Shown: positions 2,222 through 31,199, numbered from the stretch's first letter. The stretch is DNA of 31,199 bases from an uncultured Ideonella sp. (GCA_964628305.1 CAZVNC010000001.1:1-31199); one strand, 5' to 3'. Numbers and translations are program-made. Notes: generated by a model not told the origin, from the letters alone.

Positions 2222-2560
2222 TCAGGCCTTGTCGTCAGGCAGCTTGTAGTTGGCAAGCTTGTTCTTCTCGTCCTTCCAGCGATCGACTTCGGGCAGCGGA
2301 TCCTTGCTCGAGGAGAGCACCGGCCATTGCGGCGCGAAGCGCTTGTTGATGGCGAGAAAGACCTCCTGCCCGGCAGGCACGTCTTCCTCGGCGAAGATCG
2401 CCTCGACCGGGCACTCGGGGATGCATACGGCGCAGTCGATGCACTCGTCCGGATCGATGACGAGGAAGTCGGGGCCTTCGTGGAAACAATCGACCGGGCA
2501 GACGTCGACGCAGTCGGTGTATTTGCAAAGGATGCAGCTGTCGGTCACGACATGGGTCAT
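2222..2560 (-). CDS. fdxA: 7Fe ([3Fe-4S]/[4Fe-4S]) ferredoxin, Azotobacter FdI type
   Basis: MTHVVTDSCILCKYTDCVDVCPVDCFHEG...IDPDECIDCAVCIPECPVEAI is the FdxA signature. ATG at 2560 with GAGG upstream; the ORF-track extension to 2656 is unlikely. Confidence 0.92.
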   Translation of the reverse strand: MTHVVTDSCILCKYTDCVDVCPVDCFHEGPDFLVIDPDECIDCAVCIPECPVEAIFAEEDVPAGQEVFLAINKRFAPQWPVLSSSKDPLPEVDRWKDEKNKLANYKLPDDKA

Positions 2561-2642
2561 GCGGGTACCTCGTGGGTGATGAGGAGAGAGGAGAGGTGGC
2601 GAAAAAAACAGTTTGCCAGACGCCGGCGAAGGCGCTAAAGTC

Positions 2643-2686
2643 CACTCCCGGTTCATGGAGTGTTCACAACATCAACGTTAAGTGAA
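2643..2686. promoter_or_regulatory. Inverted repeats in the divergent fdxA/hnr promoter region; candidate TetR operators
   Basis: CACTCC-N8-GGAGTG (2643-2662) and TTCAC-N14-GTGAA (2663-2686) lie in the AT-richer gap between the two divergent operons. Short arms; function inferred only. Confidence 0.35.
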
Positions 2687-7836: not shown

Positions 7837-7922
7837 GCTTCGATCGACATGGGCGCGTGCCCCACGGCACGTGCCCCATTCGATCCGCGCGCCATCGAAG
7901 CCGGTGGGCTGCAAAGCCCGCC
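7837..7922 (+). other. Intercistronic stem-loops downstream of the binding-protein gene (candidate mRNA-stabilising element)
   Basis: GGGCGCGTGCC-CCAC-GGCACGTGCCC (7851-7876), flanked by GCTTCGAT/ATCGAAGC (7837-7844, 7894-7901), then GGTGGGCT-GCAA-AGCCCGCC (7903-7922) with a GNRA loop. Confidence 0.5.
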
Positions 7923-7968
7923 CTGAGCGATTTCCGGTTCCCTCGAACCCGCAACCGCAGGTCCCGTC

Positions 7969-11386: not shown

Positions 11387-11930
11387 CGCAGGGGCCTTGG
11401 CGCCGGTGCGGCTGAAGGAATCCGTGTCCGCCACCATGCCCGCGCTCGTCGAGACGAAGCTCGTCGTGAACGGCAAGCCGCAGGCCCTGTCGTGTCTGCC
11501 CGGCACGACGCTGCTCACCGCGCTGCGCAATGACCTGTGCCTGAACGGCCCGAAGTACGGTTGCGGTCTGGGCGAGTGCGGCGCCTGCACCGTGCTCGTC
11601 GACGGCGTCGCGGCGCGCGCCTGCGTGATTCCGCTCGCCGGCGTTGCCGGCCGCTCGGTGACGACGCTCGAAGGGCTGGCTGACGAACGCGGACTGCATC
11701 CGGTGCAGAAGGCCTTCATCGACGCCCAGGCCGCGCAATGCGGTTATTGCCTGAACGGCATGCTGATGATGACGGTCGCGCTGCTCGCGCGCACGCCGCA
11801 GCCGACCGAGCAGCAGGTGCGCCAGGCGCTGTCGGCGAATCTCTGCCGTTGCGGCACGCACGTCGAGATCATCGCTGCCGCGCTGCGGGCGGCCGAATTG
11901 ACCGCGCGTGCGGCGAAAGGATCGGCGTGA
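11379..11930 (+). CDS. nicA: Nicotinate dehydrogenase small [2Fe-2S]x2 subunit (NicA-like)
   Basis: GPKYGCGLGECGACTV, AQCGYC and NLCRCGT xanthine-oxidase-family Fe-S motifs; directly upstream of a NicB-like gene. Start uncertain (GTG 11379 or ATG 11436). Confidence 0.8.
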   Translation: MSDAGALAPVRLKESVSATMPALVETKLVVNGKPQALSCLPGTTLLTALRNDLCLNGPKYGCGLGECGACTVLVDGVAARACVIPLAGVAGRSVTTLEGLADERGLHPVQKAFIDAQAAQCGYCLNGMLMMTVALLARTPQPTEQQVRQALSANLCRCGTHVEIIAAALRAAELTARAAKGSA

Positions 11931-15553: not shown

Positions 15554-15556
15554 CCG

Positions 15557-16486: not shown

Positions 16487-16942
16487 CTAGCGCAGCGCGA
16501 CCAGCACCGCACCGGCGCCAAGCAGGATCAGCCCGATCAGCCGTTTCAGGTCCACTGGTTGCAATGGCGCGCCAAACAGGCCGAACTGGTCTATCACGGT
16601 GGATGCAACGAGCTGGGCAACCACCGCGCACATCACGAAATTGCCAACGCCGAAGCGCGGTGCGAGGACGGTGGCGCTGATGGCGTAAAAGCCCATCGCC
16701 ATCCCGCCGACCCAGGCCAGCGGCGGGACCGTCGTCAGCAGTTGACCCGCCGGCATCGCCGGTCGGATCGCAGCGAAGGCGATACCGACAGTGATGATGG
16801 ACATCCCGACCGCGATCAGCGATGCATGGAGTGGCGACTGGATCGCCCGTCCGAGTGTTCCTTGCAAGGCCGCCATCACGGGAATCAATACGCCCGCGAC
16901 GGCTGCCCATGCCGCATAAATCAGAGCGCTATTCGAGTTCAA
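16487..16942 (-). CDS. DMT-family transporter, YdcZ/DUF606 type
   Basis: AGVLIPVMAALQGTLG, WVGGMAMG, APRFGVG, AQLVASTVIDQFGLFG, RLIG..L..AG. TTG start is uncertain. Confidence 0.78.
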   Translation of the reverse strand: MNSNSALIYAAWAAVAGVLIPVMAALQGTLGRAIQSPLHASLIAVGMSIITVGIAFAAIRPAMPAGQLLTTVPPLAWVGGMAMGFYAISATVLAPRFGVGNFVMCAVVAQLVASTVIDQFGLFGAPLQPVDLKRLIGLILLGAGAVLVALR

Positions 16943-17056: not shown

Positions 17057-18775
17057 CTAGCTGAACCTGGTGCGTTGCAGGGCCTGTTGCGTGATCGCAC
17101 CCAACGTCACACGCGTCGAGATCACTTCGGGGGAGAGCTTGATCTCGATGAGCGTTCCTTGTTCCCTGCCGAGTGCGGCGCGCAACGCTTCCTTGAACTC
17201 GGCAGCGTCCTTCACCGGCTCCGCATGCATGCCGTAGGCACGCGCCAACGCGCAGAAGTCCGGATTGATCAGCGTCGTGCCGCTGACGCGCTGCGGATAC
17301 TCGCGCTCCTGATGCATTCGAATCGTGCCGTACATCCCGTTGTTGAGCAGCAGGACGATCAACTTGGCGCCGTGCTGAGCCGCGGTTGCCAGTTCCTGCC
17401 CGTTCATCAGGAAGTCGCCATCGCCGCTGATCGTGAACGCGACCCTTCCCGTCGTCAGGTTCGCCGCGACCGCGGCCGGAATGCCGTACCCCATCGCACC
17501 ATTGGTTGGCGCAAGCTGTGTCTTGTGGCCCTTTGCCAAACCGTGATAGCGGAAGTAGCGGTGCGTCCAGCTTGCAAAGTTGCCGGCACCGTTCGTCAAC
17601 ACCGCGTCGGCAGGCAGTTGGCGCTGCAGCTCGGCGACGATCGCGGGCATGTCGACGGAGCCTTCGCTCGTCGGGTCCAACCCGGGTAAGGCCTCCGGCA
17701 TCAGATTGGCATCGTAGTCCGCATGCACCGCCTGGGCCCAGGTCGCCCATCGCACTGCAGTCGGTGGCACCAAGTCCTGCAACGAGTGTGCCGCCGCGTC
17801 GGCGGTTGCACAGATCGCGAGGTCAGCCCGATAGACGCGGTGCAACTCGTCGGCACAGGGATGGATGTGCACCAGCTTTTGAGACGGCTGCGGCACCGTC
17901 AGCAAGGAGTAGCCGCTGGTCGTCATCTCACCGAGTCGGGCACCGATCGCGATCACGAGGTCGCAGTCGCGGATGGTCCGGGCGAGTTTCGGATTGATGC
18001 CGATGCCGACGTCGCCTGCATACAGCGCGTGATGGTTGTCGAAGATGTCCTGAAAGCGAAACGCATTGCCCACCGGCAGCTGCCACGCCTCGGCGAACGC
18101 CTGCAGCGCGCGTGCACCGTCAGGGCTCCAGCGCCCGCCTGCGATCACGAGCGGGCGTTCGGCCGCCTGCAGCAAGGCACCCAACTCTCGCACTGCGGAT
18201 GGGGCCAACCCGGCTTGCGAGACCTCCGCGCGGGGGAGTGGCTTTGCGTCGACGTGCTGGTGCAGCATGTCCTCCGGCAGCACCAGAACCACGGGCCCGG
18301 GGCGACCGTTCATCGCGGTGGCAAAGGCGCGGGAGATGTACTCCGGGATTCGCGTGGCATCGTCGATCCGTTCGACGCGCTTGGCCAGCCCCGTGGTGCT
18401 CGGGCCGAACATCGACGTGTACTCGATCTCCTGGAACGCCTCGCGGTGTCGGAAGTCAGCGCCGACGTCGCCGACGAGCAGCACCATCGGGGTGGAGTCC
18501 TGGAACGCCGTGTGGACGCCGATCGCCGCATTTGTCGCCCCCGGCCCCCGCGTGACGAGGCACACGCCCGGGCGTCCGGTGAGTTTGCCGTGCGCTTCGG
18601 CCATGAACGCTGCGCCGCCTTCCTGGCGGCAGGTGATGAAGCGGATCATGTCGCAGTGTTCGTGGAAGCCTTCGAGTACTGGCAGATAGCTCTCGCCGGG
18701 CACGCCGAAAGCGACCTCGACGCCTTGCGCGATCAGGCATTCCACGACCAGGCTGCCAGCCAATTTTGCGGTCAT
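17057..18775 (-). CDS. ThDP-dependent enzyme, acetolactate-synthase-like fold; substrate unknown
   Basis: FGVPGESYL, catalytic Glu in CRQEGGAAFMA, TRGPGATN, and the ThDP motif GDGDFLMNGQEL...NNGMYG. RBS GAAGGAG. No regulatory small subunit gene adjacent. Confidence 0.85.
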   Translation of the reverse strand: MTAKLAGSLVVECLIAQGVEVAFGVPGESYLPVLEGFHEHCDMIRFITCRQEGGAAFMAEAHGKLTGRPGVCLVTRGPGATNAAIGVHTAFQDSTPMVLLVGDVGADFRHREAFQEIEYTSMFGPSTTGLAKRVERIDDATRIPEYISRAFATAMNGRPGPVVLVLPEDMLHQHVDAKPLPRAEVSQAGLAPSAVRELGALLQAAERPLVIAGGRWSPDGARALQAFAEAWQLPVGNAFRFQDIFDNHHALYAGDVGIGINPKLARTIRDCDLVIAIGARLGEMTTSGYSLLTVPQPSQKLVHIHPCADELHRVYRADLAICATADAAAHSLQDLVPPTAVRWATWAQAVHADYDANLMPEALPGLDPTSEGSVDMPAIVAELQRQLPADAVLTNGAGNFASWTHRYFRYHGLAKGHKTQLAPTNGAMGYGIPAAVAANLTTGRVAFTISGDGDFLMNGQELATAAQHGAKLIVLLLNNGMYGTIRMHQEREYPQRVSGTTLINPDFCALARAYGMHAEPVKDAAEFKEALRAALGREQGTLIEIKLSPEVISTRVTLGAITQQALQRTRFS

Positions 18776-18950
18776 CGCAGAGACTCCTTCAAACTGAGGT
18801 GGTACGCGCCACGCGTGTTCGCAGCGCCCGAATCGAGGTGCCGGATTCGCAGTAGATGACGCCGATCAGGTGGGTGCTCGACGCCATCTGCGGTCTTCTT
18901 GCCGAAGACTGCCGACAATGGATGTTCGGGGAATGTCCCAAGTTCGTGAC

Positions 18951-18987
18951 GAGACATGTTGCGCTATAGTTAGTATACTATCAATCA
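18951..18987 (+). promoter_or_regulatory. Candidate sigma70 promoter of the DUF2848 gene overlapped by a palindromic operator
   Basis: GAGACA (18951-18956), 17-nt spacer, TATACT (18974-18979). Perfect palindrome TAGTATACTA (18971-18980) within ATAGTTAGTATACTATCAAT. RBS AAGGAG at 18993-18998. Confidence 0.6.
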
Positions 18988-19004
18988 AGCTAAAGGAGCT
19001 TCGG

Positions 19005-19709
19005 ATGAGTGATCTGCACACGCTGGATTTCGACTTCATCACCCAGCGCGAGACCGCGCATCGCACGACCACGATCGCGCGCGCCGTCATCGCCGGTTGG
19101 ACCGCGCGCGATGTGGCGGCCATGGAGCACCACATCGTCGAACTCGAGAAGATTGGCGTGCCGCGGCCTAAGCACACGCCGATGTTCTACCGCGTCGGAG
19201 CGCGCCGGATCACGACGGCGGACCGCATCGAGGCGGTTGGTGGGGACTCGTCGGGCGAGGCCGAGTTCGTGATCGTCAATGCTCACGGGCAGTTGTGGAT
19301 TGGCGTCGGGTCCGATCACACCGATCGAAAGGTCGAGACCTACGGCATCACGGTGTCCAAGCAGATGTGCGACAAGCCGGTGGCGCCGCAATTGTGGCTA
19401 CTGTCGGAGGTGGAGGCGCACTGGGATCGATTGCAACTGCATTCCGAAGTGAAGATTGATGGTCGCAGCAGCATCTATCAGGATGGCGCTGTCGCGTCGA
19501 TGCGCAGTCCTCGAGAGCTGATTTCGCTCTTCGAGCGCGACTACGGACCCTTCGGCGAAGGATCGCTGATGTTCTGCGGCACGCTCGCCGCGATCGGCGG
19601 CATCCGGCCCGCCGAGCGCTTCGAGTTCGCGTTGGTCGATCCGGTCTTCGAGCGGCGCATCGGGCACGCCTACGACGTGGCGATCCTTCCGATCGTCGAA
19701 GCCGAGTAG
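19005..19709 (+). CDS. DUF2848-family protein (FAH-like fold, function unknown)
   Basis: VIAGWTARD..AMEHHI.ELE.IGVPRP...P.FYRV, SSGEAE, GVGSDHTDRKVE, VSKQMCDKP, FCGT. ATG 19005 follows AAGGAG; the ORF-track extension to 18870 spans the promoter. Confidence 0.8.
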   Translation: MSDLHTLDFDFITQRETAHRTTTIARAVIAGWTARDVAAMEHHIVELEKIGVPRPKHTPMFYRVGARRITTADRIEAVGGDSSGEAEFVIVNAHGQLWIGVGSDHTDRKVETYGITVSKQMCDKPVAPQLWLLSEVEAHWDRLQLHSEVKIDGRSSIYQDGAVASMRSPRELISLFERDYGPFGEGSLMFCGTLAAIGGIRPAERFEFALVDPVFERRIGHAYDVAILPIVEAE

Positions 19710-19720
19710 AAGGGCGAGGC

Positions 19721-19746
19721 GCGAGAGGTACAACGCGACCTCTCGC
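19721..19746. terminator. Stem-loop between convergent DUF2848 and amidase genes
   Basis: GCGAGAGGT-N8-ACCTCTCGC, a 9-bp perfect stem in the 43-nt gap. Confidence 0.55.
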
Positions 19747-19752
19747 CAAAGA

Positions 19753-21123
19753 TCATCTGCGCAGAGCCTGGAGTGCCGCCTCGGCCTGCTCGGCAATCGC
19801 CAGCAGACGCCGGTCCTGACCCGGGGCGCCGATCAGCATCAGGCCAACCGGTGGATCGCCACGGCGATGAATCGGAATCGAGATTGCACAGCCGTCGAGA
19901 AAGTTGACGAACGCCGGATTGCGCAGCACGAGCAGATTGGTCTTGTTGCTGACCTCGGATTGCTCGAGCTCGTCGAGTCGGGGCGCGACGATGGGCACGG
20001 TCGGGCAGAGCAGCACATCGAATGCGCGCATCTTCGGGTGCACGATGTCGTGCATGCGCCGGCGCGCTTCGAGAACATCGATGTAGTCGGCGGCACACTG
20101 CGAACGCCCGGCATCGAATCTCTGAAGAACCCACGGGTCGTACAGCTCGGAACGCTGGTCCAGCAAAGGCCGATGCCAGGCGTATGCCTCGGCGCCGACC
20201 AGCCCGCCCTTCGAATTGATGCGTGGGATCTGCTGCAACTCGGGCAGCGACGCTTCCTTCAATTGCACACCGGCGCCGGAAAGCTCGCTCAGCGCTCTCT
20301 CGAAAGCGCCGGCGACCTCATCGTCCATTCCATCCGTCGCGTAGGCGCCGATCAGACCGGCACGAAGGCCCGGCAGATCAGGCGCGGAACGCGCCTGCTC
20401 GGCGTCTTGTGCACTCGCGTCCGCAATGATGGCGTCGATCGCTGCGCAACAAGCCACCGAATTGGCAAGCGGTCCGATCGAATCGAGGCTCGATGACAAG
20501 GGCACCGCACCCTCGCGAGGGACGCGCCGGGCCGTCGGTTTGAAGCCTGTGATGCCACACAGCGCAGCGGGAATGCGGCAGGAGCCACCGGTGTCGCTGC
20601 CCAATCCGAAGGGCACCATGCCGTCGGCAACCCCGACCGCGGCGCCGGACGATGAACCGCCGGGGATTCGGCCTTGCTCGCGCTGCCAGGGGTTGCGCGG
20701 CGTGCCGTAGTGCGCGTTGATGCCGAGGCCGGAGTAGGCGAATTCGGTCATGTTCGTGCGGCCGACGATCACGAATCCGGCCGCCCGCAGCCGGGCGACG
20801 GCAGGGGCGTCGACTGTGGCATGGGGACGTCCGGCCAACACGCGAGACCCGGCACGCGTCTCCTGTCCGGCGACGTCGAACAAGTCCTTGATCGAGATCG
20901 GAATGCCGGCATACGGGCTCGGCGCGGCGCCCGCCGCCCTGAGCCGATCAAACGCACCCGCGCTAGCGCGCGCGCCGTCGGCGAATACGCCGATGAACGC
21001 GCGTGCCCCTTCGCCCGCGGGATCGAGCATCCGATCCAGGCTGTCTTCGACGAGTGCACGACTGGTTGTTTCGCCGCGCGCCAGCGCACGTGCAGCGGCC
21101 TTCAGCGTCAGTGGCTCGCCCAT
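19753..21123 (-). CDS. Amidase-signature family hydrolase
   Basis: SIKDLF (catalytic Lys), GRTNMTEFAYSGLG, PGGSSSGAA, GSDTGGSCRIPAALCG (Ser-cisSer-Lys triad). Start at ATG 21123 (GAGG upstream) or GTG 21147. Confidence 0.88.
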   Translation of the reverse strand: MGEPLTLKAAARALARGETTSRALVEDSLDRMLDPAGEGARAFIGVFADGARASAGAFDRLRAAGAAPSPYAGIPISIKDLFDVAGQETRAGSRVLAGRPHATVDAPAVARLRAAGFVIVGRTNMTEFAYSGLGINAHYGTPRNPWQREQGRIPGGSSSGAAVGVADGMVPFGLGSDTGGSCRIPAALCGITGFKPTARRVPREGAVPLSSSLDSIGPLANSVACCAAIDAIIADASAQDAEQARSAPDLPGLRAGLIGAYATDGMDDEVAGAFERALSELSGAGVQLKEASLPELQQIPRINSKGGLVGAEAYAWHRPLLDQRSELYDPWVLQRFDAGRSQCAADYIDVLEARRRMHDIVHPKMRAFDVLLCPTVPIVAPRLDELEQSEVSNKTNLLVLRNPAFVNFLDGCAISIPIHRRGDPPVGLMLIGAPGQDRRLLAIAEQAEAALQALRR

Positions 21124-21143
21124 ATCGTGCCTCGTCGTTTCCT

Positions 21144-21524
21144 TCACTGCGGATCGTAGTAGTGCATCTCGATCAGCAGCGCTCCGCCTTCGGAGCGGAA
21201 CGGACCGTGCCAGACGCCCGGCGGCCTGACTGCGTACGTGTTAGCGGCGAACTTCTCGCCCCCGGTGCCGTCCACTTCGCTGCTGACCCAGAGGTCGCCG
21301 CTCACGATGAAGACCTCTTCCCAGTAGTCGTGGATGATCTTCTCGGTGGTGAACGAACCTGGCGCCCAGCGCAGCAGCCGCGTGTGCCCGCCGCGCCGAT
21401 TCTCGCGATCCAGCGTACCAGAGATGATCTTCTGCTGAACGCCGGGCGGGAAGCCGGCAGGGGTCTCCCAGCCCGATTCCATGTCGACCTGATAGAACTC
21501 GCGATGCAGTCTGTTGACGGCCAT
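21144..21524 (-). CDS. Small cupin-domain protein (ChrR-like)
   Basis: 126 aa with cupin motifs HDYWEEVFIVSGDL and RPPGVWHGPF. Strong RBS GAAAGGAGAG before ATG 21524. Confidence 0.78.
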   Translation of the reverse strand: MAVNRLHREFYQVDMESGWETPAGFPPGVQQKIISGTLDRENRRGGHTRLLRWAPGSFTTEKIIHDYWEEVFIVSGDLWVSSEVDGTGGEKFAANTYAVRPPGVWHGPFRSEGGALLIEMHYYDPQ

Positions 21525-21550
21525 TTCAAACTCTCCTTTCTCGGTTGTGA

Positions 21551-22870
21551 TCAGTCCTTGACCCGGGCGAGGCTGATGCCGCGCACGAATCCTTTCTCGA
21601 ACTTGTCCGTTTCGAACACGCTCTCGGGGATCTGGTAATAGTCGCCCGAGGCTTGCTGCTCGGCCGTGTTGCCGTACATGTGGATCGAATCGAACGGACA
21701 AGTCTGGGTGCACAGCTCGCAGCCGATGCAGTTGTGGTACAGCTCGCCCACCGTGGCGTCCTCGGCCTGGCGCAGCGCGTCGTAGAAGCAGGTCTGGATG
21801 CAGATCGTGCAGGTCGGGTTCTTGCAGGTGGCGTCCCTAACCTCGACGTGCATGCGGTCCTTGCGGAACTGCTCGCCGTAGTCCTTCACCGAGCGGCGCG
21901 ACGCGATGCCGAGCATCGATTCGATGTCATCGTAGCCGTGGTCGTCCATGAAGGCGTCCAGGCCGTCGATGATCTTGGGCAGGAACTTGATGCCCTTGAG
22001 CATCAGCACCGAGCCCACCTGCACCAGCGGCGCGCCGGCCATGATGAACTCGACGATGTCGCGGTGGTCGTAGACGCCGTTCGAGCCGGTGATCGGGATG
22101 CCGAGCTCGGTGTAGATGCGGTGGACCCAGCGCAGCGAGAGCGGCTTGGCCCAGACCCCGCCGATGCCGGCCGGGCCGCCGAGCCGCGGCGAGCCGGTTT
22201 CGATGTCGATCGAGAAGCCGGTGTACCTGTTGGTCGCGGTCACTGCCGAGGCTCCGGCCGCCTTCACTGCGCGCGCGACCTCGAGCACCGGAGACTGGTC
22301 TGGTGTGAGCTTGATGATGACCGGAATCTTCACCGCCTCGCAGACCCGCCGCGTGATCTCGGCGGCCACATCGGGCACCTGCCCGATCATGCTGCCGCCG
22401 TGGGTGCCGGGCATCATTGCCGGGTGCGGGCAGCCGAAGTTGAGTTCGACCATTGGCAGGCCGCAGTCCTCGATCGTGCGGCAGATGTCGACCCAGCTCT
22501 GTACGGTCTTGCCGCCTGCGCTACCGATCAGGTGCGAGCCACGATCCGCGGCGTACTTCTGCAGATCCTTGAGGTACGGTATCCACTCCCGCAACGGTGT
22601 GGACGAATAGCCGGAGCGGCTATAGAAGACGAAGTTCTTGTTGACCTTGCCCTTGATCGGCTCGTTCTTCTCGTTGAGGATCGCGTACTTCGAGTTCTGC
22701 GTCAGCCGCGCCATGTCCTCGATGTCGGTCAATGTTTTGATGATCATGCCGCCGGCGCCGGCGTCGACGCACTCGCGGATCACCTCGGGGCTGTTGGTCG
22801 TCTCGATCGATGCGATGACGACCGGGTTCTTGAACTTGACACCACAGAATTCGAGAGCCAGGTTTGCCAT
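21551..22870 (-). CDS. PreA/dihydropyrimidine-dehydrogenase-like FMN protein with C-terminal 2x[4Fe-4S] domain
   Basis: F.GVKFKNP..IAS, IIKT, ELNFGCPH (catalytic Cys loop), IIKLTP, TATN, GGP...KPLSL, ITGSNGV, VQVGS. C-terminal CKNPTCTICIQTC and CIGCELCTQTCP. RBS AGGAG. Confidence 0.82.
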   Translation of the reverse strand: MANLALEFCGVKFKNPVVIASIETTNSPEVIRECVDAGAGGMIIKTLTDIEDMARLTQNSKYAILNEKNEPIKGKVNKNFVFYSRSGYSSTPLREWIPYLKDLQKYAADRGSHLIGSAGGKTVQSWVDICRTIEDCGLPMVELNFGCPHPAMMPGTHGGSMIGQVPDVAAEITRRVCEAVKIPVIIKLTPDQSPVLEVARAVKAAGASAVTATNRYTGFSIDIETGSPRLGGPAGIGGVWAKPLSLRWVHRIYTELGIPITGSNGVYDHRDIVEFIMAGAPLVQVGSVLMLKGIKFLPKIIDGLDAFMDDHGYDDIESMLGIASRRSVKDYGEQFRKDRMHVEVRDATCKNPTCTICIQTCFYDALRQAEDATVGELYHNCIGCELCTQTCPFDSIHMYGNTAEQQASGDYYQIPESVFETDKFEKGFVRGISLARVKD

Positions 22871-22932
22871 GTCTGCAATCTCCTAGGAAGGTTGGTCGTT
22901 CTGCGTGACGGTACGGCGTCACCCCGCTCACT

Positions 22933-22969
22933 CAATTGTTAGTATACGAACGATTGGCGCGCCGGTCAA
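22933..22969 (-). promoter_or_regulatory. Near-consensus sigma70 promoter for the preA-like/cupin/amidase operon, overlapped by a palindromic operator
   Basis: On the minus strand: TTGACC (22969-22964), 17 nt, TATACT (22946-22941). The imperfect 24-bp palindrome CAATTGTTAGTATACGAACGATTG (22933-22956) is centred on the -10 box. Confidence 0.75.
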
Positions 22970-22984
22970 CCCGGAGCGCAAAGC

Positions 22985-24307
22985 TCATCGCTTGATCGCC
23001 ATCTGGTCCGGCAGCCAGGTCACGAGCTCGGGAAACAGATAGATCACTCCGACGAACAGCAGGAGGATCACGAAAAACGGAAAGGCGGCTTTCGTGACGA
23101 AGCCGATGTCGCGCTTCGTCATGCTCTGCAGCACGAAGAGGTTGAAGCCGACCGGCGGCGTGACCTGTGCCATCTCGACGACGATCACGACGTAGATGCC
23201 GAACCACAGCAGATCGAACTGCGCCGCGGTCACCATCGGCAACAGGACGGCCATCGTCAGTAGCACCATCGAAATACCGTCGAGCAGGCAGCCGAGAACG
23301 AGGTAGAGCAGGGTGATCGCAAGCAGCAGCTGTCCCTGCGACAGCCCCAGTTGCCCAACCCACTCCGCGAGCGCCATCGGGATACCGGTGAATCCCATCG
23401 CGATCGTGAGGAACGACGATCCAGCCAGAATCAGCATGATCATGGTCGTTGTCTTCATCGCACCCATCACCGTGGCGACAAAGGTTCGCCAACTGAATCC
23501 GCCCTGCACGACCGACAGAATCAACGCGCCGAGCACGCCGACCGCTGCGGATTCGGTCGCCGTGGCGATGCCGGCATAGATCGAGCCCAGTACGGCAACG
23601 ATCAGCAGGACCGTCGGCACGAGGTCGGCGCTGGCCTTGAGTTTGCCCAGAAAACTCACCCGCAGGTCGTTTACCGGGATGCGGTCGGCATTGATGATCG
23701 ACCAGGCGCCGACATAGGCCATGAACAGTGCGGCCAGCAGCAGCCCTGGAATCACGCCGGCGATGAAGAGCTTGTTGATCGACACGTCGGCCGTCACGCC
23801 GTAGACGATCATGATGATCGACGGCGGTATCAGCAGCCCCAGAGTGCCGGCGCCCGCCAGCGAGCCGACGACCATCTCGATCGGATAGCCGCGCTTGTTC
23901 AGCTCCGGCATCGTCATCTTTCCTATCGTCGCGCAGGTCGCCGCCGACGAGCCAGAGATGGCCGCGAAGATCGCGGAGCCGACGACGTTGACCTGCATCA
24001 GCCGGCCGGGCAAAGGCGCCATCCATGGCGCCAAGCCGCGAAACATGTACTCAGAGATCCGGGATCGAAACAGGATCTCGCCCATCCAGATGAACAGCGG
24101 CAGCGAGGTCAGCGTCCAACTCGTGAGCGACCCGAAGATCGTCGTCGCCATCGCTTCGCCGGGCATGCGCGTCGAGTACATCAAGGTCGCGACCAGGCCC
24201 ACGCCCAGCAGCGCAAGCCCGATCCAGACCCCGATGCCCAGCAGCAGGAACATCGCACCGATGATCGCAGCCGCGAGCAGCGGCCCCTGAAGTTCAGCGG
24301 TCGGCAC
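22985..24307 (-). CDS. dctM: TRAP transporter large permease
   Basis: LPLFIWMGEIL, FAAISGSSAAT, GTLGLLIPPSI, LFIAGVIPG, ATATESAA, LGCLLDG, TPPVGFNLFV. Start set at GTG 24307 (GGAGG 7 nt upstream, overlapping the dctQ end); uncertain. Confidence 0.88.
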   Translation of the reverse strand: MPTAELQGPLLAAAIIGAMFLLLGIGVWIGLALLGVGLVATLMYSTRMPGEAMATTIFGSLTSWTLTSLPLFIWMGEILFRSRISEYMFRGLAPWMAPLPGRLMQVNVVGSAIFAAISGSSAATCATIGKMTMPELNKRGYPIEMVVGSLAGAGTLGLLIPPSIIMIVYGVTADVSINKLFIAGVIPGLLLAALFMAYVGAWSIINADRIPVNDLRVSFLGKLKASADLVPTVLLIVAVLGSIYAGIATATESAAVGVLGALILSVVQGGFSWRTFVATVMGAMKTTTMIMLILAGSSFLTIAMGFTGIPMALAEWVGQLGLSQGQLLLAITLLYLVLGCLLDGISMVLLTMAVLLPMVTAAQFDLLWFGIYVVIVVEMAQVTPPVGFNLFVLQSMTKRDIGFVTKAAFPFFVILLLFVGVIYLFPELVTWLPDQMAIKR

Positions 24308-24812
24308 GGCCCACCTCCACATCTCCATGCTGCGCTTGGACCGCCGCCCCGCCCCAGACGCGCACGGCACGCTCGGCGACCGCTGCGAAGAAGGCGACTG
24401 CACCGAACGCCATCGCCCCTTGCGGAATCCAAATCGGCAGTGCGATCAAGCCCGAGCTGCGCTCGTCGAGCTGCCAAGATACCCAGGCGAGCTTGCAGAA
24501 GTGCCAGGCCAGATAGCCGCCCAGCGCCGCGGCGATCGTTACCGCGACGCGCTCCAGTACGCTGCGCACCGAAGGCGACACGTGCTCCAGGACCAGCGTG
24601 ACCCGGATGTGTTCGTCGTTCACGAACGTGTAGGCCAGCGCGAGGAAGGCCGAGGCACCCATGAAGTAGCCCGCGAACTCATCGGCCGAGCGCGGGATGT
24701 AGGGCGCGAACTGCCCGCCGAGCTGGTACAGGATCATCACCTCGATGGCGACGAAGCTGAGCGCGCCCAGAAAGGCGGATGCCCCGATGATCAAGCGCAG
24801 CACGGCGTTCAT
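24294..24812 (-). CDS. dctQ: TRAP transporter small permease
   Basis: 172 aa, four hydrophobic segments, ADEFAGY, FLALAYTF...EHIRVTL, IWIPQ. Lies between dctP and dctM. Confidence 0.85.
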   Translation of the reverse strand: MNAVLRLIIGASAFLGALSFVAIEVMILYQLGGQFAPYIPRSADEFAGYFMGASAFLALAYTFVNDEHIRVTLVLEHVSPSVRSVLERVAVTIAAALGGYLAWHFCKLAWVSWQLDERSSGLIALPIWIPQGAMAFGAVAFFAAVAERAVRVWGGAAVQAQHGDVEVGRADR

Positions 24813-24854
24813 CCTGCAGGCCCCCTGGCGATTCGCCGATGTATCGATCCGCGT

Positions 24855-25832
24855 CTACTTCCGGTAGGCCTCGACCAGCGCCTTGCCGTCCGGCCCCGCC
24901 GTGGCGAGCCATTCGTCGACGAGTTGCTTGCCGATCTGGTTGAAGTCGGCAGCGAGCTTGGGTGAAGGCGGCAGAACTTTCATGCCGTGCTCGGAGAGCA
25001 CCTTCTTCGTCGCGTCGGCGACTTGCTCGCTCGCCGCCCAGCCCGCCTCCTCGGCCTTCTTCGCCTCGGCAAGCACCGCGTCCTGGGTCGCCTTGTCGAG
25101 CGCATTGAACGCGGCCTTGTTGACGATCACCATGTTCTTGGGCAGCCAGGCCTGCACATCGTAGAAGTACTTCAGCGACTCCCAGGCCTTGTAGTCGACG
25201 GCTGACTGCGCCGACGACATCAGCGAGTTGATCTTGCCAGTCGCGAGCGCCTGCGCCACCTCGGCGGCCTGGATCGTGACCGGGCGCGCCTTGACGAGCT
25301 CGCCGATACGGGAAGTCTGTTTGTCGTAGGCGCGGAAGTTCAGGCCTTCCAGATCGGCGGCCGACTGCACCTCCTTCGCGGTGATCAGGCCCTGCGGAGG
25401 CCATGGCACGGCAAACAGCAGGCGCATGCCCTGCGCGTCGAGCGCCTTCTCGATATACGGCCGCTGCACGGTCCAGAGCTTCTTCGCGTCGGCGTAGCTC
25501 GTCGCCAGAAACGGCAGGCCATCGACGGCGTAGAGCGGATTCTCGTTGACGAGCGTGACCATCAGCACCTCGCCGATCGGCACCTGCCCGGTCTGGACGG
25601 CGCGCTTGATCTCCGGCATCTTGTACAGCGACGCCCCCGAATGAACCTTCAGGACGAACTTGCCGCCGGTCGCCTGCTTGACCCCGGCTGCGAAGCGGTC
25701 GATGTTCTGGGTGTGGAAGTTGGTCGGCGCGTACGGCGTTGGCATGTCCCAGCTCTGCGCGTGTGCAGCACCGGGAAAGATCGCAATTGCAGCCGCAGCG
25801 GCGATGGAGGCAGTGAGCTTCGACATGTGCAT
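24855..25832 (-). CDS. dctP: TRAP transporter substrate-binding protein
   Basis: Signal peptide (AAHAQ), WDMPTPY, IKRAVQTGQVPIGE, DGLPFLA, WPPQGL, DLEGLNFRAY (conserved Arg), PKNMVIVN. ATG 25832 follows AAAGGA. Confidence 0.88.
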   Translation of the reverse strand: MHMSKLTASIAAAAAIAIFPGAAHAQSWDMPTPYAPTNFHTQNIDRFAAGVKQATGGKFVLKVHSGASLYKMPEIKRAVQTGQVPIGEVLMVTLVNENPLYAVDGLPFLATSYADAKKLWTVQRPYIEKALDAQGMRLLFAVPWPPQGLITAKEVQSAADLEGLNFRAYDKQTSRIGELVKARPVTIQAAEVAQALATGKINSLMSSAQSAVDYKAWESLKYFYDVQAWLPKNMVIVNKAAFNALDKATQDAVLAEAKKAEEAGWAASEQVADATKKVLSEHGMKVLPPSPKLAADFNQIGKQLVDEWLATAGPDGKALVEAYRK

Positions 25833-25854
25833 TGGAGATCCTTTCGTGGTGGGG

Positions 25855-26451
25855 TCAGACAAGTTGCTTGGAGTCGGCGTTCGATCCGGAGAGCCTTTGA
25901 CCTTGCGGACGCAACGCCGTTCGGCCGTACACGTTGTTCGCTTCGACCAGGTCATGCAGCAGTTGCATGAACATCGTCCGCTCGCCCTCATCCAGCGGCG
26001 CGAGGAGGCGCTTCTGCGCCTCCTGCATGCGCGGGTAGATACGGGCGACGAGTTCGGCCCCCTCGCGGCTGGCCAGGCAGAGCTTGCGGCGCCTGTTGTG
26101 CGGATCGACGACGCGGGCGACAAGCTTGCGCGACTCGAGGCGCTTCAACACATCGTGGACGTTGGCCCGGTCGATGCCGAGTTCCTCGGCGACCGAGAAC
26201 TGATCCAGCCCCGGCATGTCGACGAGGATGCTCATCAGGCCGTACTGCACCGGCGTCATGCCGTACTCCTCGAGCACCTCCATGAACATCGAGACATGGA
26301 TCTGGTGCAGGCGTCGGACGAGGAACCCCGGGCGCGCCCAGAGCGAGGTGTGCTCGCGCATGCGAAACGCATTCTGATCCGCCTTCGCCTGGGCTCGGCG
26401 GACGGCGCTGATGTCGGCCGCGCTCTTGCGTCGTAGCGAAGGCTTGCTCAT
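25855..26451 (-). CDS. MarR-family transcriptional regulator
   Basis: RPGFLVRRLHQ, MTPVQYGLM, LDQFSVAEELGIDRANVHDVLKRLESRKLVAR, DPHNRRRK. Start uncertain (ATG 26451 chosen). Confidence 0.87.
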   Translation of the reverse strand: MSKPSLRRKSAADISAVRRAQAKADQNAFRMREHTSLWARPGFLVRRLHQIHVSMFMEVLEEYGMTPVQYGLMSILVDMPGLDQFSVAEELGIDRANVHDVLKRLESRKLVARVVDPHNRRRKLCLASREGAELVARIYPRMQEAQKRLLAPLDEGERTMFMQLLHDLVEANNVYGRTALRPQGQRLSGSNADSKQLV

Positions 26452-26486
26452 GTTCGTGCAATCAAGGTTGGGTGATGTTCCGCAGT

Positions 26487-27622
<1,136 letters not shown>

Positions 27623-27626
<4 letters not shown>

Positions 27627-28450
27627 GCCAGGATGTCCTCGAGGGCACGGCGCAGCATCGCCCGGCAGGCCTGCTGCCGCGCCGGTGGGGCGCCGTGCAG
27701 CGCGGGGCGGCAGGCGAGGTCGAGTTGCTCTTCGCTCAGCGCCTCGCGTCCGTTGCGCGCGATGTCGCCGGCCAGCCCGGCAAGCGCCGTCGGCCGGCCG
27801 GCGGGCGTGCCGATGAAAACCCGGGCGACGCGTCGCGGCGGATCGAGCAGCACCGCGACGGCAGCCTCGGCGAACTCGCCCGGTTTGCGGCAGAACTTGC
27901 GATAGGACCACCGCGCCTGCGCCGACAGCCGGGGCCAGTGCACCGCGGTGAGCAACTCCGCGGGCTGGAGCGCCGTGACATAGGCGCCCGACATGAACGC
28001 ATCGGCGGCGACGCGCCTTGTCCCCGAGCGGCCCTGAATCTCGATGCTGGCGCCCCAGGTCGCTGCGATCAGCGGCCAGTCGCCCGCCGGGTCGGCATGC
28101 GCGAGGCTGCCGCCGACCGTGCCGCGGTTGCGAATCGCGCGGTAGGCGATGCCGCGCGCCGCGTGGGCGAGCGGCTCAAGGCCGGAGATCGCGTTCGCGC
28201 GATCCTCGAACCAGGCGTGCGTCGTGCAGGCGCCGATGCGCACGGCGGCGTCGGCCTCGTCGACTTTGGTCAGCGCGTCGATCGCCGAAATGTCGATCAG
28301 CCGCGCCGGACGCACCAGGCGCAGGTTGAGCATCGGCCCGAGCGACTGCCCGCCGGCGACAACCTTTGATTCGACCTCGGCGTCTCCCAGCGCGTCGAGC
28401 GCCTCGGCGATCGAGCGCGCCTTCATATAGTCGAAACGCGCCGGCTTCAC
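27623..28450 (-). CDS. Mo-hydroxylase FAD-binding medium subunit (CoxM/CutM-like)
   Basis: MKPARFDY, VAGGQSLGPMLNLRL, IRNRGTVGGSLAHADPAGD. GTGA overlap with the large-subunit stop. Confidence 0.88.
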
Positions 28451-30855
28451 GATCCGGCTCCCGGCGCCGCAGGGCCGGCTGCCATCGCCGCAAGGAGCCG
28501 CGCCGGAGTCAACGGTGTCTGCGACAACTCGGCGGCGCGGCCGCGCAGCGCGTCGTTGACGGCGTTGAAGATCGCTGCCGGGGGCGCGATCGCACCGCCT
28601 TCACCCATGCCCTTGATGCCGAACTTAGTGTACGGCGACGGTGTCTCGGAGTGGTGGATCCGGATCGGCGGCGACTCGGTCGCGCCCGGCATGATGTAGT
28701 CCATCAGCGTCGACGCGAGCGGCTGGCCGTTCGCGTCGTAGGGCGACTCCTCGTAGAGGGCGGTGCCGATGCCCTGCACCACGCCGCCAATCGTCTGCCC
28801 TTCGACGATCATCGGGTTGACCATCGTGCCGCAGTCCTCGCTGATCACGTAGTCGAGCAGCTCGACCGACCCGGTGCGCGGATCCACGGCGACGACCACC
28901 GCGTGCGACGCGTAGCTGAACACGCCGGTGTCGATCTTGGGCCGGTGCGAGACGCTGACCTCCAGGCCGCCGCGATCGACGTCCTTGGGCAGCCGCTCGG
29001 GCCGCACGAACCAGGCCTGTGCAACATCGCGAATCGATACCTCGCCCGCCGGCCCCACGACCCGCCCCGATTCGAAGCGAGCCTCCTGCTCGCCGCAGCC
29101 GAGCAGCGCCGCGCCGATGCGCAGCAGCCGCGGCACGAGCGCCTCGCAGGCCTCGGCGACCGCGCCTCCGGCCATCACGATGCTGCGCGACGCGTAGGTT
29201 CCGGTCGAGAATGGCGTCGTTCCGGTGTCGCCATGCACGACGCGGATGCGTGCGACGTCGACGCCAAGCACCTGGTGAGCGACCTGCGCCAGCGTCGTCT
29301 CCATGCCCTGGCCGTGCGAGTGCACGCCGACGCAGAGTTCCAGTCCGCCGTCGGGCGTCACGCGCACCGTCGCCTGGTCGTAGCCCGGAACGAGCGGCAG
29401 GCCCCACGACGCGAACACCGATGTGCCGTGCGCCGACTGCTCGCAGTAGCTCGCGAAGCCGACGCCGATCAGCCTGCCGTCGTTCTCGCCGCGGCGCTGG
29501 CGCTCGCGCACCGCATCGAGGCCGATCGCATCGACCACCCATTCGAGGCTGCGCGGATAGTCGCCGCTGTCGTAGTGCTTGCGCGCCACGTTGTTGTAGG
29601 GCATCTGCTCGGGCCGGATCAGGTTCTCGGCGCGCACCTGCCACGGCTCGCGGCCGACCTCGCGCGCGATGGCGTCGATCAGCAATTCGATCGCGAAGCA
29701 CACGCCGGTGCGCGCGACGCCGCGATACGGCAGGAAGCCGGGCTTGTTCGTCGCGACGCACCACGTCTTGGCGCGATAGCCGGCGATCGCGTAGGGGCCG
29801 GGCAGGTTGCCGGTCGCCTGCCCGGGCTCGAGGCCGACGGTGAACGGCCAGTTCGAGTACGCGCCGCCGTCGATCGTGATCTCGGCGTCGAGCGCGAGCA
29901 GCCGGCCGCGATCGTCGACGTGCGCCGCGAGCCGGTAGTGGTGCTGGCGCGTGTTCGCCGCCGCGACCAGGTGCTCGCGCCGGTCCTCGACGTAGCGAAA
30001 CGGCGTGCGATAGCGCAGTGCGAGCCACGCGACGCAAAGCTCTTCGGGCTGGAGCACGCACTTGTAGCCGAACGCGCCGCCGACGTCGGGCGCGATGATG
30101 CGCAGCTTGCGCTCCTCGATCCCCAGGCACTGCGCCAGGCCGACGCGGATCATGTGCGGCACCTGCGTCGAGCTGTAGACGATCAACTGGTCGGCGCGCT
30201 CGTCCCAGTAGGCGACGATGGCCTTGCCTTCCATCGGATTCATCGCCTGGCGCGCGAGCGAGATCTCGCGCCGCACAATCCGCGTCGCGCGCGCTGCCTG
30301 CTCGTCGAAACTGTTGTCGTAGGCGAGCGAGAGAAAGAGGTTGTCGCGCCATTCGTCGTGCACGCGCACGCCGGGCTCGGCGAGCGCGCGGTGCGCGTCG
30401 ACCAGCGCCGGAAGCGGCTCGATGCGCAGATCGATCTCCTCGGCAAGATCCTCGGCCATCGCGCGTGTGGGCGCGACGCACATCGCGACCGGCTCGCCGA
30501 CGAAGCGCACCTTGCCCGATGCGAGCGCGTGATGCTCCGAGACCTGATAGCTTGGCAGCGTCGAGGTTGCGACGATCGGCTTCAGGCCTTCCAGATCGTC
30601 ATTTACGAACACCCGACCTTCCGATCCGGACGGCTTGGCTATGGCGACGATGCGGCCATGCGCGATCGGGCTGCGCAGGAACGCCACCTCCTGCTGACCC
30701 GGCAGCAGCATGTCCGATACATACTGGCCGCGGCCGCGCATCAGCCGCGCGTCTTCCTTGCGCGGCATGCGCGCGCCTATGCCCTGCTTCCGATCGTCCA
30801 TCGGGTCGTGGTTCACGGTGTCGCTGCCATCGGCGCTTGCTGGATCCGGCTTCAT
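28447..30855 (-). CDS. Xanthine-oxidase-family Mo-hydroxylase large subunit (CoxL/CutL-like, not a CO dehydrogenase)
   Basis: RKEDARLMRGRGQY, STQVPH, VGGAFGYK, active-site loop PYRGVAR, HGQGMETT, TYASRS, GGVVQGIG..LYE, KGMGEGG (catalytic Glu). Confidence 0.88.
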   Translation of the reverse strand: MKPDPASADGSDTVNHDPMDDRKQGIGARMPRKEDARLMRGRGQYVSDMLLPGQQEVAFLRSPIAHGRIVAIAKPSGSEGRVFVNDDLEGLKPIVATSTLPSYQVSEHHALASGKVRFVGEPVAMCVAPTRAMAEDLAEEIDLRIEPLPALVDAHRALAEPGVRVHDEWRDNLFLSLAYDNSFDEQAARATRIVRREISLARQAMNPMEGKAIVAYWDERADQLIVYSSTQVPHMIRVGLAQCLGIEERKLRIIAPDVGGAFGYKCVLQPEELCVAWLALRYRTPFRYVEDRREHLVAAANTRQHHYRLAAHVDDRGRLLALDAEITIDGGAYSNWPFTVGLEPGQATGNLPGPYAIAGYRAKTWCVATNKPGFLPYRGVARTGVCFAIELLIDAIAREVGREPWQVRAENLIRPEQMPYNNVARKHYDSGDYPRSLEWVVDAIGLDAVRERQRRGENDGRLIGVGFASYCEQSAHGTSVFASWGLPLVPGYDQATVRVTPDGGLELCVGVHSHGQGMETTLAQVAHQVLGVDVARIRVVHGDTGTTPFSTGTYASRSIVMAGGAVAEACEALVPRLLRIGAALLGCGEQEARFESGRVVGPAGEVSIRDVAQAWFVRPERLPKDVDRGGLEVSVSHRPKIDTGVFSYASHAVVVAVDPRTGSVELLDYVISEDCGTMVNPMIVEGQTIGGVVQGIGTALYEESPYDANGQPLASTLMDYIMPGATESPPIRIHHSETPSPYTKFGIKGMGEGGAIAPPAAIFNAVNDALRGRAAELSQTPLTPARLLAAMAAGPAAPGAGS

Positions 30856-30876
30856 GTCGCGTCAAGGTCCATCGGG

Positions 30877-31199
30877 TCAACGCGTCTTCCCACCAGGGGA
30901 CGCAGCCGGATCGGCTGGTGCGCCGAAGGGATCAAGGGAGTGGTCGGGGTCGTCGGCCTGGTGCGGTACCTCGATGCGGACCTTGTCCAGATCGACCTCC
31001 TTGTGCTTCTCCAGGTTGCCGGTCACGAGCCCCGGAAACGCGATCACCAGCCCCACCATCACCAACTGAATGATCACGAACGGTATCGCGCCGCGATAGA
31101 TGTCGGCGGTCTTGATCGACTTGTCAGCAACCGACCGCAGGTAGAACAGCGCAAAGCCGAAAGGCGGGTGCATGAACGAGGTCTGCATGTTCACCGCCA
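30877..31199 (-). CDS. dctM: Second TRAP large permease, C-terminal fragment (5' partial)
   Basis: AVNMQTSFMHPPFGFALFYLRSVA...IYRGAIPFVIIQL..VGLVIAFPGLV, a DctM C-terminus. Runs off the window edge; stop is 21 nt before the large-subunit start. Confidence 0.8.
   Translation of the reverse strand, partial: AVNMQTSFMHPPFGFALFYLRSVADKSIKTADIYRGAIPFVIIQLVMVGLVIAFPGLVTGNLEKHKEVDLDKVRIEVPHQADDPDHSLDPFGAPADPAASPGGKTR

Follow-up and report, generated by a model that had tools for sequence, protein, structure and literature searches.

A candidate gene cluster for oxygen-independent breakdown of an N-heteroaromatic acid, possibly picolinate, in an uncultured Ideonella sp.

Gene content and shared promoter motif

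We describe a putative catabolic gene cluster at positions 17057-31199 of a 31,199-nt stretch of DNA from an uncultured Ideonella sp. (GCA_964628305.1 CAZVNC010000001.1:1-31199). The whole stretch, referred to below as the window, makes up all of contig C1 (31.2 kb) in a metagenome-assembled genome (MAG) that has 705 contigs, totals 3.25 Mb and is 72% complete. The cluster contains genes for a molybdenum hydroxylase (CoxL, CoxM and a CoxS-CoxG fusion), a tripartite ATP-independent periplasmic (TRAP) importer, a MarR-family regulator, a PreA-like reductase, a small cupin, an amidase, a DUF2848 protein and a thiamin diphosphate (ThDP) enzyme (Table 1). A first-pass annotation had reported these families together with the lack of a ring oxygenase. 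Both observations hold, as Pfam and NCBIfam searches confirmed the family of every named gene at its place and no Rieske, flavin-monooxygenase or extradiol family matched any sizeable open reading frame (ORF) of the window. Gene starts were refined using alignments and ribosome-binding sites.

The start codon of the CoxS-CoxG gene (ATG, 27626) overlaps the stop codon of CoxM, and the DUF2848 gene is divergent from the ThDP gene. The promoter regions of the cluster each contain one copy of an AT-rich 10-nt motif, GTTAGTATAC, the first of which lies inside the palindrome TAGTATACTA. The motif was missed by a repeat search and was found through reading both AT-rich intergenic regions. Allowing at most one mismatch, there are four matches in the window (both strands, two sites) against 0.06 expected, and the whole 3.25-Mb assembly has just three exact copies of the 10-mer. 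This shared motif ties the DUF2848 and ThDP genes to the reductase-cupin-amidase operon. The third copy, on another contig (C238:155-164), immediately precedes a gene truncated by the end of that contig and is also divergent from a small ORF encoding a membrane protein; this site could mark a further regulon member or the regulator itself. At the other end of the cluster, 21 nt upstream of CoxL, is a fragment of a second DctM permease gene that the contig end truncates. The operon may begin with a further TRAP system beyond this point.

Table 1. Features of the window, with the cluster under study listed first and the left-hand part of the contig below it
Feature	Position	Strand	Family match or remark
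ALS-like ThDP enzyme, PRK08199 subfamily	17057..18775	-	TPP_enzyme N/M/C; NCBIfam 772 bits
Operator-like motif GTTAGTATAC, copy 1	18969..18978		Inside palindrome TAGTATACTA; divergent ThDP/DUF2848 promoter region
DUF2848	19005..19709	+	Pfam E 1.6e-77; start from alignment
Amidase-signature amidase, PRK07056 subfamily	19753..21147	-	NCBIfam 640 bits; start overlaps cupin stop
Small metal cupin	21144..21524	-	Cupin_7, weak, 27.8 bits; clear orthologue family
PreA/DHOD-like FMN and 2x[4Fe-4S] protein	21551..22870	-	DHO_dh E 1.9e-33 and Fer4 families
Operator-like motif GTTAGTATAC, copy 2	22938..22947		About 70 nt upstream of reductase start
TRAP large membrane subunit DctM	22985..24307	-	DctM E 2.3e-81; start set by ribosome-binding site
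TRAP small membrane subunit DctQ	24294..24812	-	DctQ E 2.7e-18
TRAP receptor DctP	24855..25832	-	DctP family
MarR-family regulator	25855..26451	-	MarR_2 E 1.2e-11
CoxS 2x[2Fe-2S] subunit fused to CoxG/SRPBCC	26487..27626	-	Fer2, Fer2_2, COXG
CoxM-type FAD subunit	27623..28450	-	FAD_binding_5 E 5e-43
CoxL/QorL-type molybdopterin large subunit	28447..30855	-	Ald_Xan_dh_C, MoCoBD_1, MoCoBD_2
Second TRAP DctM permease, C-terminal fragment	30877..31197	-	Pfam DctM E 2.3e-09, profile positions 360-413
Enamidase	243-1430		E. barkeri 2VUN, E 1e-108
7Fe-type ferredoxin	2222..2656	-	Fer4 and DUF3470
Hnr candidate	2744-4354		No Pfam match
NicA and NicB-cytochrome c fusion	11379-15553
EamA transporter	15557-16483
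YdcZ-type DMT membrane protein	16487-16942

The proteins and their relatives in other genomes

The reductase has the domain make-up of PreA, with a DHO_dh TIM barrel that includes the Cys loop and paired C-terminal [4Fe-4S] motifs. The catalytic residues of dihydropyrimidine dehydrogenase (DPD) are kept (Cys147 and Asn144, equivalent to Cys671 and Asn668), and the sequence NFGCPH aligns with LSCPH of DPD. However, three of the five features by which we judged membership of the PreA family are lacking. The protein scores 234.3 bits against the PreA equivalog, for which the cut-off is 335 (NCBIfam NF006183). The uracil-binding residues of pig DPD (Asn609, Asn736-Thr737) are not kept: TATNT has become TATNR, so that Arg215 takes the place of Thr737, and an invariant FxFxSRSGYS loop, with Arg85, stands where DPD has the Asn609 region. 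Both arginines are invariant across the reductase family, and their presence at uracil-binding positions would fit an anionic substrate. No dihydropyrimidinase or β-ureidopropionase is encoded near the reductase. PreT is absent from the window and from those parts of the related loci that were annotated or profiled, although no PreT query was run over those loci and the rest of the MAG was not searched; the related loci carry a PyrK/FNR-like protein or a 7Fe ferredoxin instead.

More than 2,000 homologues of the reductase were found. The close ones (66-95% identical) come from Burkholderiales and Hyphomicrobiales metagenome bins and carry only the default names 'tRNA-dihydrouridine synthase' or 'PreA'. 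Orthologues at least 64% identical are present at 14 loci (one genome per species), and relatives sharing 37-51% identity occur in Neptunomonas, Desulfobacter, Dehalococcoidales, Cloacibacillus and Desulfohalobiaceae. True PreA is only about 30% identical to the window reductase, and in a maximum-likelihood tree a long, fully supported branch separates it from this family.

The hydroxylase has the three-part make-up of the xanthine oxidase/CODH family, with molybdopterin (hammerhead and MoCoBD_1/2), FAD and 2x[2Fe-2S] subunits. The best solved relative of CoxL is quinoline 2-oxidoreductase (PDB entry 1T3Q; E 9e-143), and CoxL scores below the cut-off of every NCBIfam equivalog. The fusion of CoxS to CoxG/SRPBCC recurs in the related CoxL-M-S/G loci L081, L083 and L091; the added domain may serve to anchor the enzyme to the membrane or to carry a ligand. 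Orthologues of the MarR regulator (50-67% identical) adjoin the reductase in most of the Burkholderiales loci. The TRAP receptor DctP is a full-length relative of two Bordetella pertussis proteins, 2PFZ (E 1.3e-96) and 2PFY (about E 7e-79), and its sequence places it close to the 5-oxoproline-binding subfamily of B. pertussis DctP6 and DctP7. Both structures were solved with 5-oxoproline, for which a dissociation constant of 0.3 µM has been reported for DctP7 (PMC13274462; PMC3454389). 5-Oxoproline is a cyclic lactam whose carboxylate adjoins the nitrogen.

The small cupin has an invariant metal motif, H-D-x2-E-E...H (His65, Asp66, Glu69, Glu70 and His106). Its AlphaFold2 model (pLDDT, the predicted local distance difference test score, 89) is a monocupin like the manganese cupin TM1459 and KdgF. 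Because of this motif, the resemblance of the model to TM1459 and KdgF and the presence of orthologues in strictly anaerobic hosts, the cupin is predicted not to be a dioxygenase. KdgF opens a carboxylated cyclic enol ether to a linear keto acid, and a ring opening of this type may serve as a parallel for the cupin, by analogy only.

A sequence search of DUF2848 against the PDB gave no match, and only the fold search placed it. The AlphaFold2 model (pLDDT 92.6) has a fumarylacetoacetate hydrolase (FAH) fold, with a Foldseek probability of 1.0 and template-modelling scores of 0.57-0.65 against Cg1458, fumarylpyruvate hydrolase, KdaD, FAHD1 and HpcE. The solved matches (oxaloacetate decarboxylase, fumarylpyruvate hydrolase, 2-keto-3-deoxyarabinonate dehydratase and HpcE) all bind 2-oxo or dioxo acids on a metal. 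Invariant SGExE, GSDHTDR and KQ motifs resemble, as a pattern match, the carboxylate residues of the FAH divalent-metal site (E-x-E ... D) and its catalytic lysine. We assign DUF2848 as an FAH-fold enzyme and count it, like the cupin, as a core member of the set of genes that recurs with the reductase, termed the module below. The DUF2848 family has more than 7,800 homologues. At L095:9624-10699 a DUF2848 gene directly follows one for RidA, an enamine/imine deaminase, in a cluster that also has LigB, Amidohydro_2 and γ-glutamyltranspeptidase genes; DUF2848 thus has further metabolic contexts.

The loci related to the window show several arrangements. The window, a second Ideonella locus (L001) and L002 have a common layout. 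At L088 CoxM-L-S and an MFS carrier are divergent from reductase-cupin-amidase-DUF2848-TetR. At L091 an acyl-CoA dehydrogenase and a fused E1 2-oxo-acid dehydrogenase are divergent from reductase-cupin-amidase-DUF2848-7Fe ferredoxin-FNR-like protein-electron-transfer flavoprotein (ETF), with CoxS/G-M-L close by, and in Rhodospirillaceae (L010) reductase-cupin-amidase-DUF2848-ThDP-ferredoxin form one operon. The Desulfobacter locus (L089, 8082-18069; a MAG from the coral Oculina) has GntR-GntR-cupin-DUF2848-CN_hydrolase-reductase-BCCT-MttB-CoxM-S-L on one strand, and its MttB homologue is uninterrupted (non-pyrrolysine, non-Pyl). Dehalococcoidales have three subunits of a 2-oxoacid:ferredoxin oxidoreductase, then cupin-DUF2848-reductase-GntR-CN_hydrolase; in Cloacibacillus the order is GntR-DUF2848-cupin-reductase-unknown-CoxS, followed by the contig end. 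The first-pass annotation would have been undermined had these genes failed to co-occur elsewhere, but they recur together in other genomes, and we do not regard the arrangement as a product of chance.

The reductase is beside a molybdenum hydroxylase at most of the long loci. The hydroxylases belong to two unrelated lineages, one with CoxL 58-82% identical to that of the window (order L-M-S/G) and one with CoxL only 26-28% identical (M-L-S or M-S-L; L088 and L015). This suggests that hydroxylases were recruited independently and hence that hydroxylase and reductase work together. The module extends from Burkholderiales to Desulfobacter, Dehalococcoidales, Desulfohalobiaceae and Cloacibacillus, a distribution that points to oxygen independence. 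It is rare and patchy: 399 genomes sampled from the class and 400 from the family, with two congeners among them, yielded no orthologue. A plasmid search gave no match. We note that some aerobic loci have Rieske/VanA_C oxygenase genes in the neighbourhood of the reductase (L081:1105-2124 and L087:12426-16150). The idea of an aerobic N-demethylase was dropped, as the gene at L081:1105-2124 has no informative NCBIfam family.

Nine further Burkholderiales loci have DctP-CoxL-M-S/G, MarR and reductase-HyuA-HyuB, then a PyrK/FNR-like gene where this is visible, and lack the cupin, DUF2848 and amidase. A DctP 70% identical to that of the window serves one such locus in Lautropia. The reductase is thus followed either by the trio of cupin, DUF2848 and amidase or by HyuA-HyuB, and never by both together. 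The best NCBIfam match of HyuA and HyuB is caprolactamase (492 and 194 bits, under the cut-off). The loci with HyuAB group as one clade within the trio loci, with reductases 77-80% identical to that of the window, and we infer that HyuAB and the trio do the same job on the same compound. As the step after the reductase is carried out by an enzyme of the hydantoinase/oxoprolinase/caprolactamase family or by the trio, the two being mutually exclusive, the reductase product would be a lactam. In the anaerobes a nitrilase-superfamily amidase (CN_hydrolase) stands in place of the amidase-signature enzyme. Because of this exchange, the amide that is hydrolysed is probably a linear ω-amide, formed after ring opening by the cupin and DUF2848. 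The first-pass annotation had the amidase, with or without the cupin, open the ring; its amidase step is retained here but is more plausibly placed after that opening.

Three unrelated ThDP enzymes of 2-oxo acids join the module: the ALS-like enzyme of the window, a KOR-like ferredoxin oxidoreductase and an E1 enzyme. Orthologues of the first were found only at L001 (87% identical) and L010 (50%, in the operon after DUF2848), and its PDB relatives are generic ALS-like proteins. In Dehalococcoidales the genes of the KOR-like oxidoreductase immediately precede that of the cupin. The acyl-CoA dehydrogenase and ETF that accompany the E1 enzyme at L091 would be consistent with a C6 product that is converted to glutaryl-CoA, but it was not possible to assign this dehydrogenase as a glutaryl-CoA dehydrogenase. 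The association of three kinds of ThDP enzyme and the FAH-fold DUF2848 with the module suggests that the pathway ends in a 2-oxo acid. DUF2848 and the ThDP enzyme, which had initially both been placed alongside the pathway, now part company: the former belongs to the core, and the latter is accessory, being present at only three loci.

The trio also occurs in cultured Xanthobacter (L092-L094, about 10001-16150), where it is accompanied by a flavin reductase, an HpaB-type monooxygenase, GntR and a Bra-type ABC importer. The DUF2848 protein is 61% identical to that of the window and the amidase belongs to the same PRK07056 subfamily. These genes offer a tractable system for learning the role of the trio.

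Proposed pathway and competing explanations

In our view, the chance is roughly even that the region constitutes one regulon for the O2-independent catabolism of an α-carboxy N-heteroaromatic acid. Picolinate is most likely the acid, as our best single guess, and takes roughly two thirds of that probability; the chemical steps that follow are those that we infer from the observed gene content, synteny and folds. The TRAP system would import the acid, and CoxLMS/G would use water to add an oxo group at the free carbon beside the nitrogen, which for picolinate gives 6-hydroxypicolinate (6-oxo-1,6-dihydropyridine-2-carboxylate). The PreA-like enzyme would then reduce the C=C bond conjugated to the lactam carbonyl, taking electrons from ferredoxin and not from PreT and holding the carboxylate by its new arginines, to yield the cyclic enamide-lactam 6-oxo-1,4,5,6-tetrahydropicolinate. 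Hydration or tautomerization of the enamide by the cupin and DUF2848 would open the ring at C2-N and form 2-oxoadipamate, the ω-amide of a 2-oxo-dicarboxylate. The amidase would release ammonia and 2-oxoadipate, and the ThDP enzyme would decarboxylate the 2-oxo acid. In the sister clade the ATP-dependent HyuAB lactamase would substitute for the ring-opening and amidase steps.

Picolinate is favoured for three reasons. Only an α carboxylate yields a 2-oxo acid, the window already holds a dedicated nicotinate set, and the Desulfobacter operon sets a BCCT betaine carrier and a non-Pyl MttB methyltransferase between reductase and hydroxylase. The last arrangement is consistent with demethylation of homarine (N-methylpicolinate). 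The hydroxylate-reduce-hydrolyse-ThDP logic of the first-pass annotation fits the gene neighbourhoods, while its choice of picolinate as substrate stays conjectural. A more specific proposal is that the cluster encodes the first O2-independent route for picolinate and, once its N-methyl group has been removed by a corrinoid-dependent reaction, for homarine, with a PreT-less reductase and ATP-free ring opening to 2-oxoadipamate by the cupin and DUF2848. On this view the hydroxylase and the reductase may also pass electrons to each other via ferredoxin, so that hydroxylation and reduction taken together would be redox-neutral. We regard this proposal as tentative, possible rather than probable.

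Several observations weigh against the pathway as drawn for picolinate. The nearest characterized relatives of DctP bind the five-membered lactam 5-oxoproline and not a pyridine, which keeps a five-membered-ring substrate as a rival. The Xanthobacter trio has neither a PreA-like reductase nor a molybdenum enzyme, and its association with an HpaB-type two-component monooxygenase implies that the trio is not confined to a single precursor. The two settings could be reconciled by reasoning, if not by evidence: a pyrrole acid would need an oxygenase without reduction and a pyridine acid a molybdenum enzyme and one reduction, both arriving at the same enamide-lactam level. The BCCT/MttB link would suit trigonelline as well as homarine. 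The ThDP enzyme is found at only three loci, and the oxidoreductase of Dehalococcoidales fits 2-oxoglutarate equally well. Three reductase orthologues (L012, L013 and L087) sit in unrelated contexts, and every host of the full module is a MAG. Finally, the contig stops 340 nt past CoxL, and an oxygenase could lie beyond its end.

The same logic might apply to an acid with a five-membered ring, for example pyrrole-2-carboxylate or an imidazole carboxylate, which would pass through a 5-oxoproline-like lactam to 2-oxoglutarate or glutamate. The kinship of DctP with the 5-oxoproline receptors 2PFZ and 2PFY (PMC13274462) speaks for it, as does the membership of HyuAB in the oxoprolinase/hydantoinase family. 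The nitrilase-type amidases resemble ω-amidases and the oxidoreductase is KOR-like. The neighbour of the Xanthobacter trio, an HpaB-type monooxygenase, is the type of enzyme reported for hydroxylation of pyrrole-2-carboxylate. Nevertheless, we consider such a substrate unlikely. Molybdenum hydroxylases attack electron-poor azines and not electron-rich pyrroles. Hydroxylated pyrrole-2-carboxylate is already at the enamide-lactam level; its reduction would give 5-oxoproline, from which the ATP-free trio could form a 2-oxo acid only with the help of an oxidase. Wherever a molybdenum enzyme is present, however, the trio is always found together with the reductase. The acyl-CoA dehydrogenase and ETF of L091 are better suited to glutaryl-CoA from a C6 product, and a five-membered ring offers no natural betaine precursor to account for the BCCT/MttB pair. 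Another azine carboxylate (pyrazine-2-carboxylate, quinolinate, a pyridine dicarboxylate, quinaldate or a pyrimidine carboxylate) would obey the same logic, since the computed evidence defines the ring only as having a carboxylate next to the nitrogen and one free α carbon; the nearest solved relative of CoxL, moreover, is a quinoline enzyme. This too has a small share of the probability. Pyrazinoate, quinolinate and similar azine acids are rarer in nature than picolinate, and a small receptor of the 5-oxoproline type speaks against bicyclic or dicarboxylic ligands. The BCCT/MttB pair suits a natural N-methyl betaine, of which homarine is the known abundant α-carboxy example (PMC13236597 for its abundance).

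The nicotinate genes adjoin the module both here and in Ideonella L001, and hydroxylation, reduction and hydrolysis is also the logic of nicotinate fermentation. The cluster could thus be a second route for nicotinate or 6-hydroxynicotinate (via 1,4,5,6-tetrahydro-6-oxonicotinate) or the lower pathway of the neighbouring NicAB-Hnr-enamidase cluster, a reading to which the suitability of BCCT/MttB for trigonelline would lend itself. We find this quite improbable, as the window already holds an Hnr candidate and a true enamidase, the module owns a separate hydroxylase and importer, and in other genomes no NicAB, Hnr or enamidase genes lie within 10 kb of it. If the nicotinate-derived lactam were opened, 2-formylglutarate would result, and not a 2-oxo acid, leaving three kinds of ThDP enzyme and an FAH-fold enzyme unexplained. 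Least probable of all, to a degree that we would barely entertain, is that unrelated operons stand side by side and that the PreA-like protein is an ordinary pyrimidine or dihydroorotate reductase. The public record does name it 'PreA' or 'tRNA-dihydrouridine synthase', and some orthologues are in unrelated contexts. However, the synteny recurs across five phyla and with two hydroxylase lineages, and the promoter regions of the cluster share an operator-like motif. PreT and dihydropyrimidinase are not nearby, the uracil-binding residues are replaced, the score is under the PreA equivalog cut-off and the branch from PreA is long.

If the picolinate proposal is correct, ATP-free ring opening would be a new enzymatic reaction, and first functions would be obtained for DUF2848, for a Cupin_7 family and for a large PreT-less branch of the DPD family that is misnamed in databases. 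Opening of the same ring with ATP (HyuAB) or without it (the trio) would constitute a natural experiment. Picolinate is abundant, its sources being tryptophan breakdown and microbial products. The pathway would explain anaerobic turnover of picolinate and homarine in sulfate reducers, Dehalococcoidia and gut Synergistota. It is directly testable with commercial compounds.

Relation to the neighbouring nicotinate genes and to known systems

The left-hand part of the window (243-15553) is a separate cluster of nicotinate type, so that two parallel hydroxylate-reduce-hydrolyse systems adjoin, as they do in Ideonella L001. It includes an enamidase, an Hnr candidate, NicA and a NicB-cytochrome c fusion, as well as two AA_synth/DUF1185 paralogues and a Bra-type ABC importer. 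An EamA transporter and a YdcZ-type membrane protein lie between the two clusters. Neither an Hnr-type reductase nor an enamidase is encoded within 17057-31199; both are in the left-hand cluster.

The cluster at 17057-31199 itself encodes no electron donor for the reductase. The 7Fe-type ferredoxin of the left-hand part is a candidate donor common to the nicotinate cluster and the reductase; the proposed link draws on homologues 47-53% identical that lie inside the reductase operons of L010 and L011. Contig C86 (1-8308, L097) carries genes for a CoA-transferase III, an FNR/PyrK-like protein, MarR, a tungsten-type aldehyde:ferredoxin oxidoreductase, a 7Fe ferredoxin and TRAP DctPQ. Its FNR/PyrK-like protein is 65% identical to the protein encoded after HyuB in the sister loci, and its 7Fe ferredoxin is 67% identical to that of the window. 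The FNR/PyrK-like gene is a possible donor but not a dedicated one, being part of the aldehyde:ferredoxin oxidoreductase cluster, which is a possible source of reduced ferredoxin for the window reductases.

In PreT-PreA and DPD (PDB entries 1GT8 and 1H7W) the C=C bond conjugated to a ring amide is likewise reduced before hydrolysis of the ring, and the Cys, the Asn and the 2x[4Fe-4S] clusters are common to both. In contrast, identity is about 30% and the cluster lacks PreT, dihydropyrimidinase and β-ureidopropionase. The HyuA/HyuB lactamases (5-oxoprolinase, caprolactamase) replace the trio in the sister clade and are not in the window, whose route would spare ATP.

The described routes for picolinate and homarine all depend on O2 (bioRxiv 10.1101/530550; PMC13236597), and in the library searched no paper was found on this gene set, on DUF2848 or on a reductive picolinate route. 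The pic cluster of Alcaligenes faecalis JQ135 (PicA, PicB, PicC and PicD; bioRxiv 10.1101/530550) likewise begins with a three-component molybdenum enzyme that hydroxylates picolinate at C6, as proposed here for CoxLMS/G. After 6-hydroxypicolinate, however, the pic route uses O2 twice, in the monooxygenase PicB and the ring-cleaving dioxygenase PicD; PicC is a decarboxylase. Such oxygenase genes are not in the window, the downstream gene families of the two routes do not overlap, and the module, unlike the pic route, is also found in strict anaerobes. Homarine is an abundant marine metabolite for which the only known route is oxygenolytic (PMC13236597). That system, homABCDER, perhaps has its ultimate substrate in common with the Desulfobacter variant that carries BCCT and MttB, but it opens the N-methylated ring by a TgnAB-like flavin/oxygenase pair to give N-methylglutamate (PMC13236597) and shares no gene family with the cluster.

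The closest parallel in logic is the nicotinate fermentation of Eubacterium barkeri and its Azorhizobium-type hybrid, in which, as proposed for the cluster, a molybdenum enzyme hydroxylates the ring with water, a ferredoxin-dependent reduction follows, the ring is opened hydrolytically and ammonia is released, all without an oxygenase. The E. barkeri route employs nicotinate dehydrogenase, Hnr and enamidase, to which the post-hydroxylation enzymes of the cluster are not homologous. In their place the cluster has a reductase of the DPD/DHOD (dihydroorotate dehydrogenase) family and the cupin, DUF2848 and amidase (or HyuAB), and its predicted product is a 2-oxo acid, not 2-formylglutarate. The overall logic is thus known from nicotinate fermentation, whereas the set of enzymes that follows the hydroxylase appears, from comparison of the genes, to be new.

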